Part shown: in pieces, positions 9,974 to 59,536 of the stretch
Layout of the letters: the number at the start of each line of letters is the position of its first letter
Position numbering within the stretch: the first letter of the stretch is position 1
NCBI GenBank assembly: GCA_943356485.1
Contig: CALRFD010000001.1
Location: 137,716-201,715 of the forward strand
DNA length: 64,000 bases
Direction: 5' to 3'
DNA from: Patescibacteria group bacterium
GTDB lineage: Bacteria; Patescibacteriota; Microgenomatia; Daviesbacterales; UBA10151
Program-made: the position numbers and the translations under genes
The notes under the pieces: model-generated
Databases searched by the model: none
What the model saw: the letters and a program-made list of their open reading frames with translations, nothing else
Told to the model about the DNA's origin: nothing

Positions 9974-10538
9974 ACAAGAAGGAAATACCTTAGCAGGACA
10001 AGTTTGGGAGAAACATGAACTAACACAAAAAGCCTCTTTGGCCAAAGAGGCTTTAGTCAGGTTACTCTCAGAAGAAGTAGTAGATGGTTTAAGGCATTAC
10101 TTTGGAGCTCCACAGCCAGAGTCAGGAGTCTTTTTTGATAAGCAGTTTGGAAATGTTGGTATAACAATTAATCCAGGATTTAAAGTTCCCCAGTCAGAGC
10201 CGGAACTATTTTTTGGCAGACAGTTTAGCCTAGGAAATAATTCAGATTCTCACTGGGAATTTTGCCGTTCTGGCGGATTCCGCCAGGTTATATTTGAAAC
10301 AAACCAGAATACTGCTTTGGGTGACCGGAGTTTAAGGAGGTTTATGATTAGAGGTTCTCATCCTGAAAATAGATCCGGTGAGTGGGAAGTTGAATTTATA
10401 ATCGGAGGATCGGGAATTATGAAAAGAGAAAATAGAGAAGCATTAATTTTTGAGCAGGCAGACGCTTTACTAGTTTTAACTATTTTAGGTGGAATTAAGG
10501 ATCAGCTTGAAAGATTAAAGTTAAATAAAAGAAGATAA
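9963..10538 (+). CDS. Hypothetical protein (191 aa).
   Basis: ORF overlapping the phosphorylase stop by 11 bp. No motif recognised. Confidence 0.4.
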   Translation: MHIEQEGNTLAGQVWEKHELTQKASLAKEALVRLLSEEVVDGLRHYFGAPQPESGVFFDKQFGNVGITINPGFKVPQSEPELFFGRQFSLGNNSDSHWEFCRSGGFRQVIFETNQNTALGDRSLRRFMIRGSHPENRSGEWEVEFIIGGSGIMKRENREALIFEQADALLVLTILGGIKDQLERLKLNKRR

Positions 10539-10559
10539 AGAGCAAGCGAAAGATTAAAT

Positions 10560-10588
10560 TTGACAGAAGATTACATTTTTAGTAAGAT
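10560..10588 (+). promoter_or_regulatory. Sigma70-like promoter TTGACA-17-TAAGAT driving a ~270-nt leader before the PLP enzyme gene.
   Basis: TTGACA at 10560-10565 and TAAGAT at 10583-10588, spacer 17. Confidence 0.5.
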
Positions 10589-10595
10589 TATTTTT

Positions 10596-10865
10596 ATAAT
10601 TAAATATTAATCAAGAGTGATGGCCTCTTTCGCTAAAGCTTCAAAGGCTAAAGGGAGAGATAGAGATTTGGCTCGAAATCATCCAGCAACCCTTCGACTC
10701 GCTGATACTCGCTCAGGGCTATAGCCCTTTGTAAGTTTAGGCAAAGTCGGGATCGGGTGCTACACCCAAACCTTTACCTCGCCTTTGGCGGGCGAAAGGG
10801 AGGATTAGTCCTGAGCGAAGTCGAAGGAAAAAACATGTAACCTCTCTTTCAAGAGAGGTTTTTTA
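10596..10865 (+). promoter_or_regulatory. Structured 5' leader (candidate riboswitch or attenuator, class unassigned). An 18-bp long-range helix encloses several GC hairpins and is followed by a terminator hairpin that also sequesters the SD.
   Basis: CCTTCGACTCGC...CGCTCAGG (10691-10717) pairs with CCTGAGCGAAGTCGAAGG (10810-10827). Internal hairpins are GGGCtataGCCC, GGGTGctaCACCC and CGCCtttGGCG. Terminator CCTCTCTTtcaaGAGAGG + TTTTTT lies at 10841-10864, 1 nt before the ATG at 10866. The region is GC-rich in an AT-rich genome. Confidence 0.5.
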
Positions 10866-12023
10866 ATGGCTATAGAAACAAAAACAAATGTACCATCATT
10901 CATAGATTTAGAAGATGTGCTTGCAGCGCAAGAAGCTAAGAGAAATCACCAAGCCCGGGATTTATATCCCAGAGATGGCAGCCTGGGTCTGTTTTCCTTA
11001 GAGGAGGAAATAGCTACGTATCTATCAGTAAGACGGGGATCGCTACTGCTTTATAATACCGGAATGTCGGCAGTAGTAGATGCGCTTGAGGTAAATAATC
11101 CTACTTTCGGCACAAAAATTGTCAGAGGTGCGCAGCAATACAGTCAGGCAGGCGGCTATATTTCTCAAGATTTAAAACAAAGAGGCGCTAAATCATATTT
11201 AGTTGATGCAGGATCAATTGAAGATCTAGACCATGTTTTAATAAAACATGAACCTGACATAGTATTTTTAGAGACAGTGACAAACGGATCTGAAATGGCG
11301 GTTTTGGATGTAGAACAATTTTTAAAACTGGATTCTTTGGCACGGATCAATCCGGTGATTATCTTAGACCATACCTTACCAACATCTTCTGGAAAACGAT
11401 TATCAGAGATTATTGAAGCCTCGCAAAGAAGAGTTATCGGTGTAGAGAGCGGAACTAAGTTTATCGGTATGAATACGGAAATGAGCGGGATTGCTTATAC
11501 AAATAATGATGAATTGCTGACAAGATTAAAACAAAGACGGCAGAGAACAGGTTCTTTACTCAGTAGCTCTGCCGCTGAAACGATCCAAAGAGTAATGCCT
11601 AGGAATGTTGATGAATATAATAAAAGGAACATTCGTATTTTAAGAAATACATCCAGGTTAGCACAGGCTTGTTACAGTGCAGAGTCAGGGCAGTCAGGTT
11701 TTATTGTTACATATCCAAACCTACCTTCTCATCCTCAGTTTGAGTATGTTAAAACTGCTTATCCAGACGGAGCTGCGCCGGTATTTTTTATCCAGCTTAC
11801 CAATTTTGCTGAAAATGGTCACCATGAATTAACCAGGGCATTGTGGAGGAATGACACCATAAGATTAATGTGTGAGCTGGGGCAAAGTTTCGGGTTTGAT
11901 AAATCTAGAATTTGGCCGGATGATCACGCTCCGGTAGTAAGGGTTAGTGGCGGAACTTATTTGCCCAAAGAAGAGATAGAGTTGGAGAGAGCCTTTTACC
12001 TTGTTTTATCCTCTTTAAAATAA
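10866..12023 (+). CDS. Cys/Met-metabolism PLP-dependent enzyme (cystathionine gamma-synthase / beta-lyase / O-acylhomoserine sulfhydrylase family).
   Basis: NNPTFGT (cf. Y.R..NPT), FLETVTNGS (cf. ETPTNP) and VESGTKFIGM (PLP lysine in the S.TK motif). Length 385 aa. Confidence 0.7.
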   Translation: MAIETKTNVPSFIDLEDVLAAQEAKRNHQARDLYPRDGSLGLFSLEEEIATYLSVRRGSLLLYNTGMSAVVDALEVNNPTFGTKIVRGAQQYSQAGGYISQDLKQRGAKSYLVDAGSIEDLDHVLIKHEPDIVFLETVTNGSEMAVLDVEQFLKLDSLARINPVIILDHTLPTSSGKRLSEIIEASQRRVIGVESGTKFIGMNTEMSGIAYTNNDELLTRLKQRRQRTGSLLSSSAAETIQRVMPRNVDEYNKRNIRILRNTSRLAQACYSAESGQSGFIVTYPNLPSHPQFEYVKTAYPDGAAPVFFIQLTNFAENGHHELTRALWRNDTIRLMCELGQSFGFDKSRIWPDDHAPVVRVSGGTYLPKEEIELERAFYLVLSSLK

Positions 12024-12032
12024 GGAGAAGTT

Positions 12033-14373
<2,341 letters not shown>

Positions 14374-23171: not shown

Positions 23172-23177
23172 GTCTCT

Positions 23178-23243
23178 TCCCACCCTTCGGGTGGTTTAGC
23201 CCACCTTGCCGGTGAGGCAGACTTCGCACCTATTCTTTTTTGG
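23178..23243 (+). repeat. Copy A of a ~66-bp two-hairpin + U-tract element, about 90% identical to 59471-59536.
   Basis: CCACCCttcgGGTGG (UUCG tetraloop hairpin), TTGCCggtgaGGCAG hairpin, then CTTTTTTGG. Confidence 0.7.
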
Positions 23244-45221: not shown

Positions 45222-46578
45222 AGAGAGAGAAAGTTCAGTCAGAGGAGTAAATGAAAATTTGTCGGATTTTTATAAATCCTGGGGAGCATTTGATATCTTT
45301 GAGAAAACGCTGGATCAGCTACCTCCGGACTGGTTAAAAATCTTAAACATTGCCAGAAATCTACTAGACGGGAAAAGAATTCCTGGAGTCAACCTTCCTT
45401 CAACTGTCATGGCTCTGGTAGAGAAGGATCAGGAAATAGTTTTTGAAAAAAGATATATGACCAGAAAATGGCAGCAAAAATCCATCCTACCAGCCACCAG
45501 CATTGATGTTAAAAATCTGGAAGATTTATCTCAATTGCCTAAAGTATTGCCAGCCCACCTCCTGCTGCAGGGCGAAGCGCCGGAAATCTTTGCTTATCGG
45601 GCTCTGACTCATTCTCTACCAATAGCCGAGATGCAAAAACCAAGAGCAATAACAGAAGAAAAATCAGAAACCTTGATGGAACTTGTACCAAAGGCAAGAG
45701 AAAGAACTTCTATGCGGCAAAGAGTCTATGCTTTAATGGATGTTTCTCTCTCAATGAAATCTAATTACAAATTAATCTTTTCCAAAGCTGTCATGTTGGC
45801 TTATTTGGCAAAAGCCCACGAGGAAGGATCAGAGGTTTATTTCCGAGCTTTTGCCGGCAGTGTCGGGGATCTGGTAGCCTGCATCTCTCCTGAGGATTTT
45901 CCTGCTTTGGCAAAGAGGATCTTAGGATACAGGGTCTATCATGGTACTGATATTAGGTATGCTCTCACAACTGCAGTTGAAGATATTTCTAGGATGGAGA
46001 GATTAACTGACAGTAGAAGAGCTAAAACTGAGGTTTTGCTAATATCAGATGGTGAAAGCTATACCCCTATACCCCTGATGCCTAAAAATATAGCTTTGCA
46101 TACCCTGCATTTAGTCGGAGGAGGCGAGGAGTTTATATTAGATAAAGAGTTAAGGCAAATGAGTAACACTTACACCAGGATAGATACAGGAAATTTAATG
46201 CTGCCAAGTATTTCAGAGGAGGCTTGGTTTATGTTTGAGGAGATTGAGAGGCTGGAAGATCAAACAAAAGGTCTGACAGATTCAGAGATGAAATACGATA
46301 GAAGACTGCAGCAAAGAGTTGAAGCTATAAGAAAGCATACAGAAGCATATAGAAAAATCGATTCCAGCGAGAAAGTTAGGGAAAATGCCGGCAGAGCGCA
46401 AAAACTGCATGATAAAGTTTCCTTAGAAAAAGCAGAGGAAAGATTAAAGAAAAAATTAGAATTAATAAGGTATTTTATAAAAAAACTTATGCAAAAAATT
46501 AAGTCTTTCCGATTGCCTAAATTTGACAGAAAGAAAGTATTAGCCGGGAGTTTATTTGATTTTAGAATAAAGGACTAG
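45214..46578 (+). CDS. von Willebrand factor A (vWA) domain protein, ViaA-like partner of the MoxR ATPase.
   Basis: MIDAS motif in RVYALMDVSLSM (DxSxS), then a Thr and LLISDGES. Overlaps the MoxR gene by 8 nt (coupled). Confidence 0.65.
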   Translation: MAKERESSVRGVNENLSDFYKSWGAFDIFEKTLDQLPPDWLKILNIARNLLDGKRIPGVNLPSTVMALVEKDQEIVFEKRYMTRKWQQKSILPATSIDVKNLEDLSQLPKVLPAHLLLQGEAPEIFAYRALTHSLPIAEMQKPRAITEEKSETLMELVPKARERTSMRQRVYALMDVSLSMKSNYKLIFSKAVMLAYLAKAHEEGSEVYFRAFAGSVGDLVACISPEDFPALAKRILGYRVYHGTDIRYALTTAVEDISRMERLTDSRRAKTEVLLISDGESYTPIPLMPKNIALHTLHLVGGGEEFILDKELRQMSNTYTRIDTGNLMLPSISEEAWFMFEEIERLEDQTKGLTDSEMKYDRRLQQRVEAIRKHTEAYRKIDSSEKVRENAGRAQKLHDKVSLEKAEERLKKKLELIRYFIKKLMQKIKSFRLPKFDRKKVLAGSLFDFRIKD

Positions 46579-47521
46579 GATTACCTATTACCTTAACATT
46601 ATTTGTAGTTTGATTTGCTACTTCTTCCAAAGTTATTCCTTTTAACTCTGCAATCAGCCTTGCAATTTCTAAAACTGCAGATGGTTCGTTTCTCTGCCCC
46701 CGTTTGGATTGGAGAGGTAGGAAGGGGCAATCAGTCTCCAGGCAAATTTTATCCAAAGGCAGAATTTTAACAGCCTCTCTTAAGTATTCATTTTTAGGAT
46801 AGGTTAGAGTTCCTCCAAATGACACTAAAACATTAGACATTTTGAGTATTTGGTGAGTGGTTCTGGTCAAACCACTGTAGCAGTGGAAAATAGCCGGGTA
46901 ATCACCTATTAAATTTAACGTTTCATCCCAGGCTTCGCAGTTTTCTGGATTTTTAGAGCGGTCATCCCGGCAGTGAACTATTAAAGGTAAGTCTAGCTTT
47001 TTAGCCAGATCAATCTGGGCTTGAAAAAGTCTTCTTTGTAGCTCTTTTTCGTGATTGTGAGAAAGTTTACCGGTTCGACTGAGCTCACCGTCGAAGTCCT
47101 GAACTTGTTTCAGGGTGGCAATCTCTGTTTCTCTAAAGTAATAATCCAGCCCGCATTCCCCAACAGCGATAACCTTTTTCGGATTTTCTCTATAAATTTT
47201 TTCCAGTTGAGTAATGTCTTCGTTGACATTTTTGCAACGATCGTCGTATTTTTGTCCAGGTAAGGAATAATTTATAGCCTCATGCGGGTGAATACCGATT
47301 GTTGAATAAACCTTCAATCCTGGAATGTCTGACAGTTTACCGGTTCGACTGAGCTCACCGCCGAAGTCCTGAGCTTGTCGAAGGGCTTTTTTCGATGATT
47401 CAATATCTACCCCAACATTTATAATGGTAGTTACACTGGCATCAAGAGATCGTTTTATAACTTCATCAAAATCCGGTTTAAAACTGTCCCAATATAAATG
47501 GGCATGGGTGTCTATCAGCAT
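46562..47521 (-). CDS. tatD: TatD-family metal-dependent deoxyribonuclease. Carries two in-frame ~48-bp repeat insertions.
   Basis: MLIDTHAHLYW, GIHPHEA, AVGECGLDYY, LIVHCRDD and the C-terminal DCPFLPL. Duplicated inserts encode QDFGGELSRTGKLS and QDFDGELSRTGKLS. Confidence 0.85.
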   Translation of the reverse strand: MLIDTHAHLYWDSFKPDFDEVIKRSLDASVTTIINVGVDIESSKKALRQAQDFGGELSRTGKLSDIPGLKVYSTIGIHPHEAINYSLPGQKYDDRCKNVNEDITQLEKIYRENPKKVIAVGECGLDYYFRETEIATLKQVQDFDGELSRTGKLSHNHEKELQRRLFQAQIDLAKKLDLPLIVHCRDDRSKNPENCEAWDETLNLIGDYPAIFHCYSGLTRTTHQILKMSNVLVSFGGTLTYPKNEYLREAVKILPLDKICLETDCPFLPLQSKRGQRNEPSAVLEIARLIAELKGITLEEVANQTTNNVKVIGNPSPLF

Positions 47522-59395: not shown

Positions 59396-59470
59396 ATTTT
59401 ACTTTGCAAGTATAAAGTAAAATAAGGATTTCTATATTATAGATCACAAACGCCGATAATTTCCCAAATT

Positions 59471-59536
59471 TTCCACCCTTCGGGTGGATTAGCCCGCCTT
59501 GCCGTCGAGGCAGGCTTTGCACCTTTCCTTTTTTGA
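59471..59536 (+). repeat. Copy B of the ~66-bp two-hairpin + U-tract element, followed by a CCACCTCC...GGATTAGGTAG box at 59542-59573.
   Basis: CCACCCttcgGGTGG, TTGCCgtcgaGGCAG, CCTTTTTTG. About 90% identical to 23178-23243. Confidence 0.7.

Follow-up and report, generated by a model that had tools for sequence, protein, structure and literature searches.

Riboswitches of the S-adenosylmethionine (SAM)-I class, or S-box RNAs (RF00162; B. subtilis yitJ and T. tengcongensis metF), are built around a four-way junction in which the joining segment J1/2 reads AAGAG and the core of the third paired region (P3) reads GCAAC...GGUGC; the P2 loop forms a pseudoknot with J3/4, and P1 contains A-U pairs in tandem. 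Their platform draws P1 and the 3' strand of P4 into a choice between terminator and antiterminator, and the genes they control are those of methionine and SAM. The same features recur in the leader described here, which lies in a 64,000-nucleotide (nt) stretch of DNA from a Microgenomates-like bacterium of the Candidate Phyla Radiation (CPR), directly ahead of a gene for a pyridoxal phosphate (PLP) enzyme of the Cys/Met-metabolism family that starts at position 10866. In what follows "the window" means the whole of that stretch, while L-numbers denote the loci of relatives on other contigs. On the evidence of sequence comparison and predicted folding we consider it highly probable that 10606-10809 is a SAM-I-class aptamer which, with its terminator/antiterminator platform, controls the PLP gene. 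Core sequence, helices, pseudoknot, platform and gene context are the grounds for placing it in the SAM-I clan, but since two individual tests of membership give the opposite answer (the Rfam threshold and the canonical kink-turn, or K-turn) it is filed as a variant, neither a new class nor a plain member. Both the class and the mechanism are textbook; what is notable is the blind spot in annotation, the replacement of the K-turn and the colonisation of the RNA by a mini-element.

A preliminary description of the locus had recognised a riboswitch-like leader whose terminator overlaps the only Shine-Dalgarno (SD)-like sequence, and had proposed that the gene under its control encodes a Cys/Met-family PLP enzyme and lies among SAM-cycle genes, with ahcY adjoining. 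Both points are borne out, and all of the sequence features that it listed are present: the promoter, the GC-rich leader, the long-range pairing, and the terminator with its U6 tract before the ATG. Its exclusion of SAM-I is overturned by a family model and by the Rfam scores of simple relatives, both of which place the aptamer in that class. The Rfam search that it had recommended reports no riboswitch family: the 64-kb window at gathering thresholds gives no RNA family at all, and region 10500-10900 at E ≤ 10 gives only chance matches (PyrR, Phe_leader and a scaRNA) driven by the terminator. Rfam misses the leader because extra hairpins have been inserted in the outer loops of P2, P3 and P4, and these insertions, of about 36, 60 and 19 nt respectively, explain why most of the leader had seemed not to fit SAM-I.

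A protein search with the PLP enzyme returned 57 relatives; the few that are named belong to CPR lineages (Daviesbacteria, Levybacteria, Saccharimonadales), with one weak match in Micrarchaeota, and the leaders on their contigs share with the window leader the sequence blocks given in Table 1. Two such relatives match RF00162 under its gathering threshold of 44.4 bits, L003 with 31.6 bits (E = 2e-5) and L004 with 30.1 bits (E = 6e-5). A specific pattern scan of metagenome contigs gave 36 loci (the pattern used for L140-L175 required GAGAGGTTTT), and together with the protein-anchored loci these make 38 unique leaders; eight loci of the family were found via the protein, independently of the DNA pattern. 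A separate scan of a genome collection, using the pattern TTGGCTCGN{5,35}CAGCAACC, was too unspecific and gave mostly chance matches; among the matches listed for it, SAM-I appears only in L105 and L122, both from metagenome-assembled genomes (MAGs) outside the CPR. These two (L105 3010-3204 at 55.6 bits, L122 2227-2333 at 48.7 bits) are on MAG contigs labelled Gammaproteobacteria and Pseudomonadales, and L105 carries a P3 insertion of about 95 nt, so that one long insertion in P3 is tolerated by RF00162.

When 21 insertion-free members of the family were aligned with the window excluded (alignment A1), RNAalifold recovered P2a, P2b, P3 and P4 unaided, with compensatory changes. A covariance model (R1) made from the 21 simple members, again without the window and with the SAM-I secondary structure imposed, matches plus-strand positions 10604-10811 of the window along the full length of the model (1-107 of 107), with 48.7 bits and E ~1e-12, and this match is the single one in 64 kb. 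In the R1 alignment P2 is interrupted by a local insertion of 55 nt, P3 by one of 57 nt and P4 by one of 22 nt. Simple relatives do pass Rfam gathering thresholds, namely L142, L153, L159, L164 and L165 for RF00162 (44.7-48.9 bits) and L150, L158 and L163 for RF01725, the SAM-I/IV family (44.6-48.6 bits), while the insertion-bearing members L126, L141, L146, L156, L157, L172 and L174 stay under them; within the family it is the window copy that has the most insertions.

Covariation was assessed in a 42-sequence model alignment to which the pseudoknot had been added. Standard pairs occupy 95.8% of cells, a figure that drops to 52% or less once the partners are slid; both sides have changed in 12 of 28 pairs, and the observed score was reached by none of 500 shuffles. 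The pair joining the P2 loop to J3/4 in the pseudoknot is UA in 29 sequences, CG in five and broken in none. A covariation analysis of homologous leaders, which the preliminary description had suggested, thus shows covariation of P1 to P4 and of the pseudoknot. The degraded coding sequence that it had named as a possible objection was considered and rejected, there being no open reading frame (ORF) of at least 40 amino acids (aa) that overlaps 10539-10865, while conservation tracks base pairs, not codons. Among the 44 family columns conserved at 95% or more the window agrees at 37, the other seven being alignment gaps in the P2 insertion; compared by hand, five of these match and two are K-turn positions. 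All conserved core positions outside the K-turn are intact in the window copy, and its core nucleotides presumably map onto the SAM contacts of the 2GIS structure.

The window copy thus has the P1-P4 order of the four-way junction, the pseudoknot and the SAM-I core (AAGAG, GCAAC/GGUGC and the tandem A-U pairs of P1), and it occupies the 5' leader of a methionine/SAM gene with a terminator/antiterminator platform. Folded without constraint, the nascent transcript from 10596 to 10809 has the SAM-I four-way junction as its minimum free energy (MFE) structure, at -68.7 kcal/mol. In the window, in L157 and in L172 the extended P3 arm forms a long local hairpin that the conserved P3 core closes. The element ATCAAGAG, which had been likened to a P1 strand of SAM-I, is indeed a real P1/J1-2 strand, though at 10610-10617 and not at 10612. 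Four inner hairpins had also been proposed, and all are present as complementarity, but one of them, GGGTGctaCACCC, forms no hairpin within the conserved fold: its GGGUGC is the 3' strand of P3, and its CACCCAA belongs to J3/4 and includes the pseudoknot strand.

Table 1. Features of the leader and its surroundings, sequence blocks shared with the leaders of relatives, and copies of the dispersed element outside riboswitches; positions are those of the window unless a locus is named.
Feature	Positions	Strand	Details
Sigma-70-type promoter, TTGACA-17-TAAGAT	10560-10588	+	-35 TTGACA 10560-10565; -10 TAAGAT 10583-10588
P1	10606-10612 (AUUAAUC) with 10803-10809 (GAUUAGU)	+	Family model, fold of transcript to 10809, family covariation
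J1/2, AAGAG(U)	10613-10618	+	AAGAG 10613-10617; SAM-I junction, invariant column in family
P2 arm	10619-10683	+	Family model, fold, K-turn table
P2a	10619-10623 with 10679-10683	+	
Inserted P2 hairpin	10624-10660	+	Also in L004, L174
P2b	10663-10665 with 10672-10674	+	
P2 loop, AUUUGG	10666-10671	+	
Pseudoknot	UUGG 10668-10671 (P2 loop) with CCAA 10766-10769 (J3/4)	+	Covariation
P3 core	AGCA-A-CCC 10685-10692 with GGGUGCU 10755-10761	+	P3 overall 10685-10761
P3 extension, irregular hairpin of ~60 nt	10693-10754	+	Homologous extended arms in L157, L172
J3/4, ACACCCAAA	10762-10770	+	Contains pseudoknot 3' strand 10766-10769
P4	10771-10775 with 10796-10800	+	P4 region 10771-10800
Inserted P4 hairpin, CUCGCC-UUU-GGCGGG, 6 base pairs (bp)	10778-10792	+	22-nt local insertion in model alignment
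Antiterminator strand, AAAGGGAGG	10795-10803	+	P4 3' strand, J4/1 and first P1 3' base; complementary to CCUCUCUUU, 10841-10849
Tail hairpin/element, UCCUGAGCGAAGUCGAAGGA	10809-10828	+	Sense copy of dispersed 18-nt GC-rich element; antiterminator apex
Intrinsic terminator: 9-10 bp stem, UCAA loop, U6	10839-10864 (stem 10839-10860, U6 10859-10864)	+	-11.8 kcal/mol
Regulated gene, Cys/Met-metabolism PLP enzyme family (CGS/CGL-like)	10866-12023	+	385 aa; PF01053, E = 7.6e-21
ahcY	12033-13289	-	Convergent with PLP gene
Shared leader block 1			AUCAAGAG-UGRURG
Shared leader block 2			UUGGCUCG
Shared leader block 3			CCAGCAACC
Shared leader block 4			GGUGCUAMACCCAA
Shared leader block 5			GGGAGGAUU
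Shared leader block 6			CCUCUCUU...GAGAGG, then U-tract
Element copies outside riboswitches	L003 6893-6931; L131 5311-5326; L133 1770-1807		
Element copies outside riboswitches	L136 1294-1309; L164 13572-13588; L175 4467-4500		L136 copy inside TsaD coding region

The promoter agrees with the consensus at 10 of 12 positions, and a TTGACA-16/18-TAnnnT promoter stands at the equivalent position in 35 of 37 relatives; judged from it, transcription would start at about 10595. The leader is a local peak in GC content: it has 0.49-0.51, whereas the flanking genes have about 0.40 and the sequence immediately upstream 0.24-0.33. The plus strand of the whole leader is more stable than its shuffles (z = -3.8), and the MFE fold includes a long-range pairing of 10691-10717 with 10810-10827 together with small hairpins. 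The minus strand is also stable (z = -5.1), but a minus-strand RNA was rejected, since the family model matches the plus strand only and every relative is co-oriented with the gene downstream. No second copy of the leader was found elsewhere in the 64-kb window.

As regards mechanism, binding of SAM would leave AAAGGGAGG (10795-10803) held by P1 and P4, so that the terminator (10840-10859 with U6) would form and transcription would stop one or two nt before the start codon; the same hairpin would also bury the sole SD-like sequence, GAGAGG, which at 10853-10858 lies in the terminator's 3' arm, 7 nt upstream of the ATG. After U6 there is just one A before the ATG. Without SAM, AAAGGGAGG would instead pair with CCUCUCUUU (10841-10849) over 9 bp, giving an antiterminator capped at its apex by the tail hairpin; polymerase would read through and GAGAGG would be freed. 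A platform working in this way would follow classical S-box logic, joining a termination step to the burial and release of an SD-like motif. Complementarity of at least 6 bp between (A)AGGGAGG and CCUCUC(UU) in the 5' arm of the terminator is present in 38 of the 38 members. Right after the U-tract, (A)RUGG (10865-10869 in the window) is conserved in many members, even those with a proper SD sequence and start 15-40 nt downstream, and in some it opens a mini-ORF of four codons, for example AUGAUUAAAAAUUAA in L141.

The long-range pairing had been described as an 18-bp closing helix belonging to the functional architecture, which the family does not support. In it, 10691-10699 pairs with 10819-10827 and 10709-10717 with 10810-10818, giving 9+9 perfect base pairs around a 9-nt bulge (-36.7 kcal/mol; z = -6.3 against shuffles). 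Complementarity of P3 to the tail stands out only in the window and in L172 (-23.4 kcal/mol, z = -4.3), and is at background in the other 36 of the 38 members. The helix removes C10691 and C10692 from the P3 core and crosses P1, and therefore excludes the aptamer; moreover its 3' arm, in the tail, is transcribed only about 30 nt before the terminator, and on the predicted folding the transcript would already have adopted the SAM-I four-way junction before that arm was made.

Directly behind P1 comes the 18-mer CCUGAGCGAAGUCGAAGG, which forms the 3' arm of the helix, and units of the same kind with a variable central loop occupy the same tail position in L151, L164, L166, L172 and L175, the element being unrelated to the tail hairpins of the remaining members; in the window copy the native tail hairpin is replaced by this dispersed element. 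The 5' arm, in the P3 extension (10691-10716), is an antisense copy of that element, and in L157 the 5' arm of P3 is the exact reverse complement of the window tail. The window holds four matches to the element where 0.21 would be expected, and a CCTGAG-N-TCGAAGG unit occurs in CPR contigs outside riboswitches in both orientations, so that in number of copies, orientation and unrelatedness of context it behaves as a dispersed palindromic mini-repeat. An antisense copy in P3 together with a sense copy in the tail accounts for 18 bp of long-range complementarity, and the helix therefore most probably arose incidentally, through the insertion of one element at two sites, rather than by design. 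That the element colonised the riboswitch twice and that the resulting pairing was then co-opted as an anti-aptamer strand, resetting or locking the switch, seems to us improbable; if true, it would mean mobile-element insertions rewiring the logic of a riboswitch, alongside the replacement of a K-turn by a three-way junction in a SAM-I aptamer.

Some copies of the element have nested hairpins in their central loop. Inside the window, the gene for a TatD-family hydrolase (ORF 46562-47521, minus strand) holds two in-frame GC-rich copies, 47053-47115 and 47323-47385, which are 86% identical; the unit, ...GGTTCGACTGAGCTCACCGYCGAAGTCCTGARCTTGT..., contains the CCTGAG...TCGAAGG motif of the riboswitch tail and encodes the peptides LRQAQDFGGELSRTGKLS and LKQVQDFDGELSRTGKLS. 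Relative to solved TatD structures these copies are insertions, the protein having 319 aa as against about 260. Other GC-rich repeats of hairpin type are a 66-nt direct pair (23177-23242 and 59470-59535, 86% identical) and a 31-nt inverted pair, CCTGCCTCGCCGGCAGGCAGG, at 1709-1739 and 2474-2504.

The K-turn of SAM-I has been reported to be needed for formation of the pseudoknot between L2 and J3/4 (PMC3064774), and its loss from the window copy is therefore a real structural departure. At the K-turn site of the window the 5' side reads AUA and the 3' side GAAA(U), and a hairpin of 36 nt has been inserted. The canonical bulged-strand G-A and the A at 1n are present in 33 of 39 other rows of the CPR family; the canonical tandem is missing in the window, L004 and L174, and in all three a hairpin between P2a and P2b creates a three-way junction. 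The P2 insert of the window (10624-10660) is 100% identical to L004 2295-2331, although identity between the two PLP proteins is only 56%. The arms of this insert, CCUCUUUC and GGGAGAG, look similar to those of the terminator, and it is possible for them to pair with the terminator or antiterminator strands.

Several observations weigh against reading the leader as a working SAM-I riboswitch, and are best considered together. The window copy fails the RF00162 gathering threshold of 44.4 bits and is not reported by that model even at E ≤ 10, and it lacks the tandem G.A/A.G pairs and 3-nt bulge that define the canonical K-turn of P2. In nearest-neighbour energies, which omit the pseudoknot, the tertiary contacts and the energy of the ligand, the fold with the long-range helix comes to -99.0 kcal/mol, against -80.9 kcal/mol for aptamer plus terminator and -85.8 kcal/mol for the antiterminator fold, and on such a model the aptamer could be unfolded at equilibrium. 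A terminator hairpin with U-tract is found in 38 of the 38 family members, including all eight protein-anchored relatives, but for L140-L175 this conservation is partly circular, as the terminator was part of the search pattern. Finally, an SD-like motif precedes the first start in only five of the 42 long ORFs of the window (a crude count); with SD use apparently so rare, the translational half of the mechanism, sequestration of the SD-like sequence, is weak and tentative. Some of these points could be taken to mean that in the window copy the riboswitch is inactive or in decay, now a constitutive terminator or attenuator or merely tolerated: it has accumulated three insertions and an element in its tail, it has lost the K-turn tandem on which the pseudoknot reportedly depends (PMC3064774), and its competing long-range fold is the more stable. 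We think this distinctly unlikely. Apart from the K-turn, the core positions, the pseudoknot strands, the A-U pairs of P1, the antiterminator and the terminator are all intact, and the insertions are confined to apical or peripheral positions that SAM-I tolerates. The P2 insert, moreover, recurs identically in L004 and nearly so in L174, where the genes downstream differ from that of the window (in L004 the 56% identical PLP protein lies behind an intervening small ORF, and in L174 the downstream gene is metE-like), which argues for selection on the insert; and a three-way junction may be able to give the same bend as a K-turn.

The same energies bear on whether the long-range helix (10691-10717 with 10810-10827) is itself functional, a domesticated mobile element through which the tail would invade P3 and unfold the aptamer, giving a third state or an irreversible OFF state. 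Thermodynamically it is favoured as the ground state, with a margin of about 13-18 kcal/mol, and its 9+9 bp are perfectly paired; L172 likewise has an antisense element in P3 and a sense element in its tail (z = -4.3), and a P3-to-3'-tail topology recalls PK-2 of SAM-IV (PMC6890682). Yet the members in which the helix is missing include five that have the same tail element beside a plain P3, while L157 combines the antisense P3 arm with an unrelated tail, and by a rough estimate the co-occurrence of two element copies (2/3 against 6/38) is not significant. The helix also takes away two G-C pairs of the P3 core, whereas PK-2 pairs with a loop, and since the terminator still forms in the predicted fold it would yield only a constitutive OFF state; on balance we regard a function for it as unlikely. 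Least probable of all, to the point of being hard to credit, is that the leader represents a new riboswitch class, or that a SAM-I-like fold has been re-specified for S-adenosylhomocysteine (SAH), methionine or homocysteine. The empty Rfam result for the window and the SAH-cycle genes next door (ahcY and a pfkB-family kinase) would suit such an idea, but relatives that score above the SAM-I threshold have an identical binding-core sequence, no core substitution sets the window copy apart, and the metK, metE-like and MTHFR genes found behind copies of the family are those of the classic S-box regulon. A variant SAM-I riboswitch remains the reading that we prefer.

The start of the regulated gene at 10866 agrees with the N-termini of homologues, and there is a VPSF motif at residues 9-13. 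The protein is a weak member of PF01053, scores far under every NCBIfam equivalog cut-off and is only distantly related to the CGS, CGL and O-acetylhomoserine (OAH)-sulfhydrylase families. It is followed, on the opposite strand, by a pfkB-family kinase gene as well as by ahcY. Genes behind other copies of the family encode MetK (L145), MetE-like Meth_synt_2 proteins (L150, L174), MTHFR (L142) and, at many loci, the PLP enzyme. Directly behind this SAM riboswitch, CPR contigs also encode small proteins of 100-150 aa without a Pfam match, which fall into at least three families (L003 2498-2959, L004 2485-2898, and the first ORF after the riboswitch in L141, L148, L156, L154, L157 and L165), and their position makes them candidates for functions related to SAM or methionine. 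In L003 the 5' end of the riboswitch is duplicated over 16 nt (ATCAAGAGTGGTAGAT, 2972-2990) directly upstream of the PLP gene, while the full riboswitch is 650 nt further up, before a 153-aa ORF without known function; this arrangement suggests either that a small ORF was inserted between riboswitch and PLP gene or that there was a partial duplication. As to translation in the window generally, many ORFs have, in place of an SD sequence, a TATAAT-like box 5-10 nt before the start (for example the plus-strand starts 39990, 43902 and 60202, along with several minus-strand ones), which suggests that mRNAs here may frequently be leaderless.

What follows from this for annotation is that covariance models can miss riboswitches with lineage-specific insertions in their peripheral loops: here, with three such insertions, a SAM-I aptamer of a kind that scores about 45-49 bits goes unreported. 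The literature searched yielded no description of SAM riboswitches in CPR/Patescibacteria, and the genomes of this group, poorly annotated as they are for regulatory RNA, may hold more hidden riboswitches. The leaders would assign SAM-responsive control to a very divergent PLP enzyme of the CGS/CGL family and to several families of small ORFs in the CPR, which thereby become candidates for a part in methionine/SAM metabolism. The exchange of the K-turn for a three-way junction, and the pairing derived from the element, can be viewed as natural experiments on how much change of scaffold a SAM-I aptamer tolerates.

Set beside the described systems, the window copy differs from SAM-I in falling under the Rfam reporting level, in having a three-way junction with a 36-nt hairpin where the K-turn should be, in its P3 of about 77 nt and the extra hairpin in P4, in a start codon only 1 nt past the terminator U-tract, and in its CPR/Microgenomates-like host. 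SAM-IV (RF00634) and SAM-I/IV (RF01725) belong to the same clan and share the ligand core, and, like the present leader, they have a hairpin after the P1 3' strand, in the P5 position; three of the simple relatives score best against RF01725, though the window copy is not matched by it. A further likeness is to PK-2 of SAM-IV, defined by conserved base pairs between the P3 loop and the 3' tail (PMC6890682): in the window, too, a strand of P3 is able to pair with the tail. The family, however, keeps the internal P4 of SAM-I, which SAM-IV lacks, and its division of P2 into P2a and P2b with PK-1, and the pairing in the window uses a strand of the P3 stem and would break P3 rather than cap it. A SAM-IV-like PK-2 was accordingly rejected for the family, P3-to-tail complementarity being at background in 36 of 38 members and the internal P4 being present. 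The dispersed element, for its part, resembles repetitive extragenic palindromes (REPs) and miniature inverted-repeat transposable elements (MITEs), in that the same GC-rich hairpin unit of 18-20 nt is found in both orientations, between genes, in RNA loops and in frame within genes, across many CPR contigs. It differs in being much shorter than typical MITEs, and in the C-G/U-A covariation of its central loop, which suggests that the hairpin is under selection.

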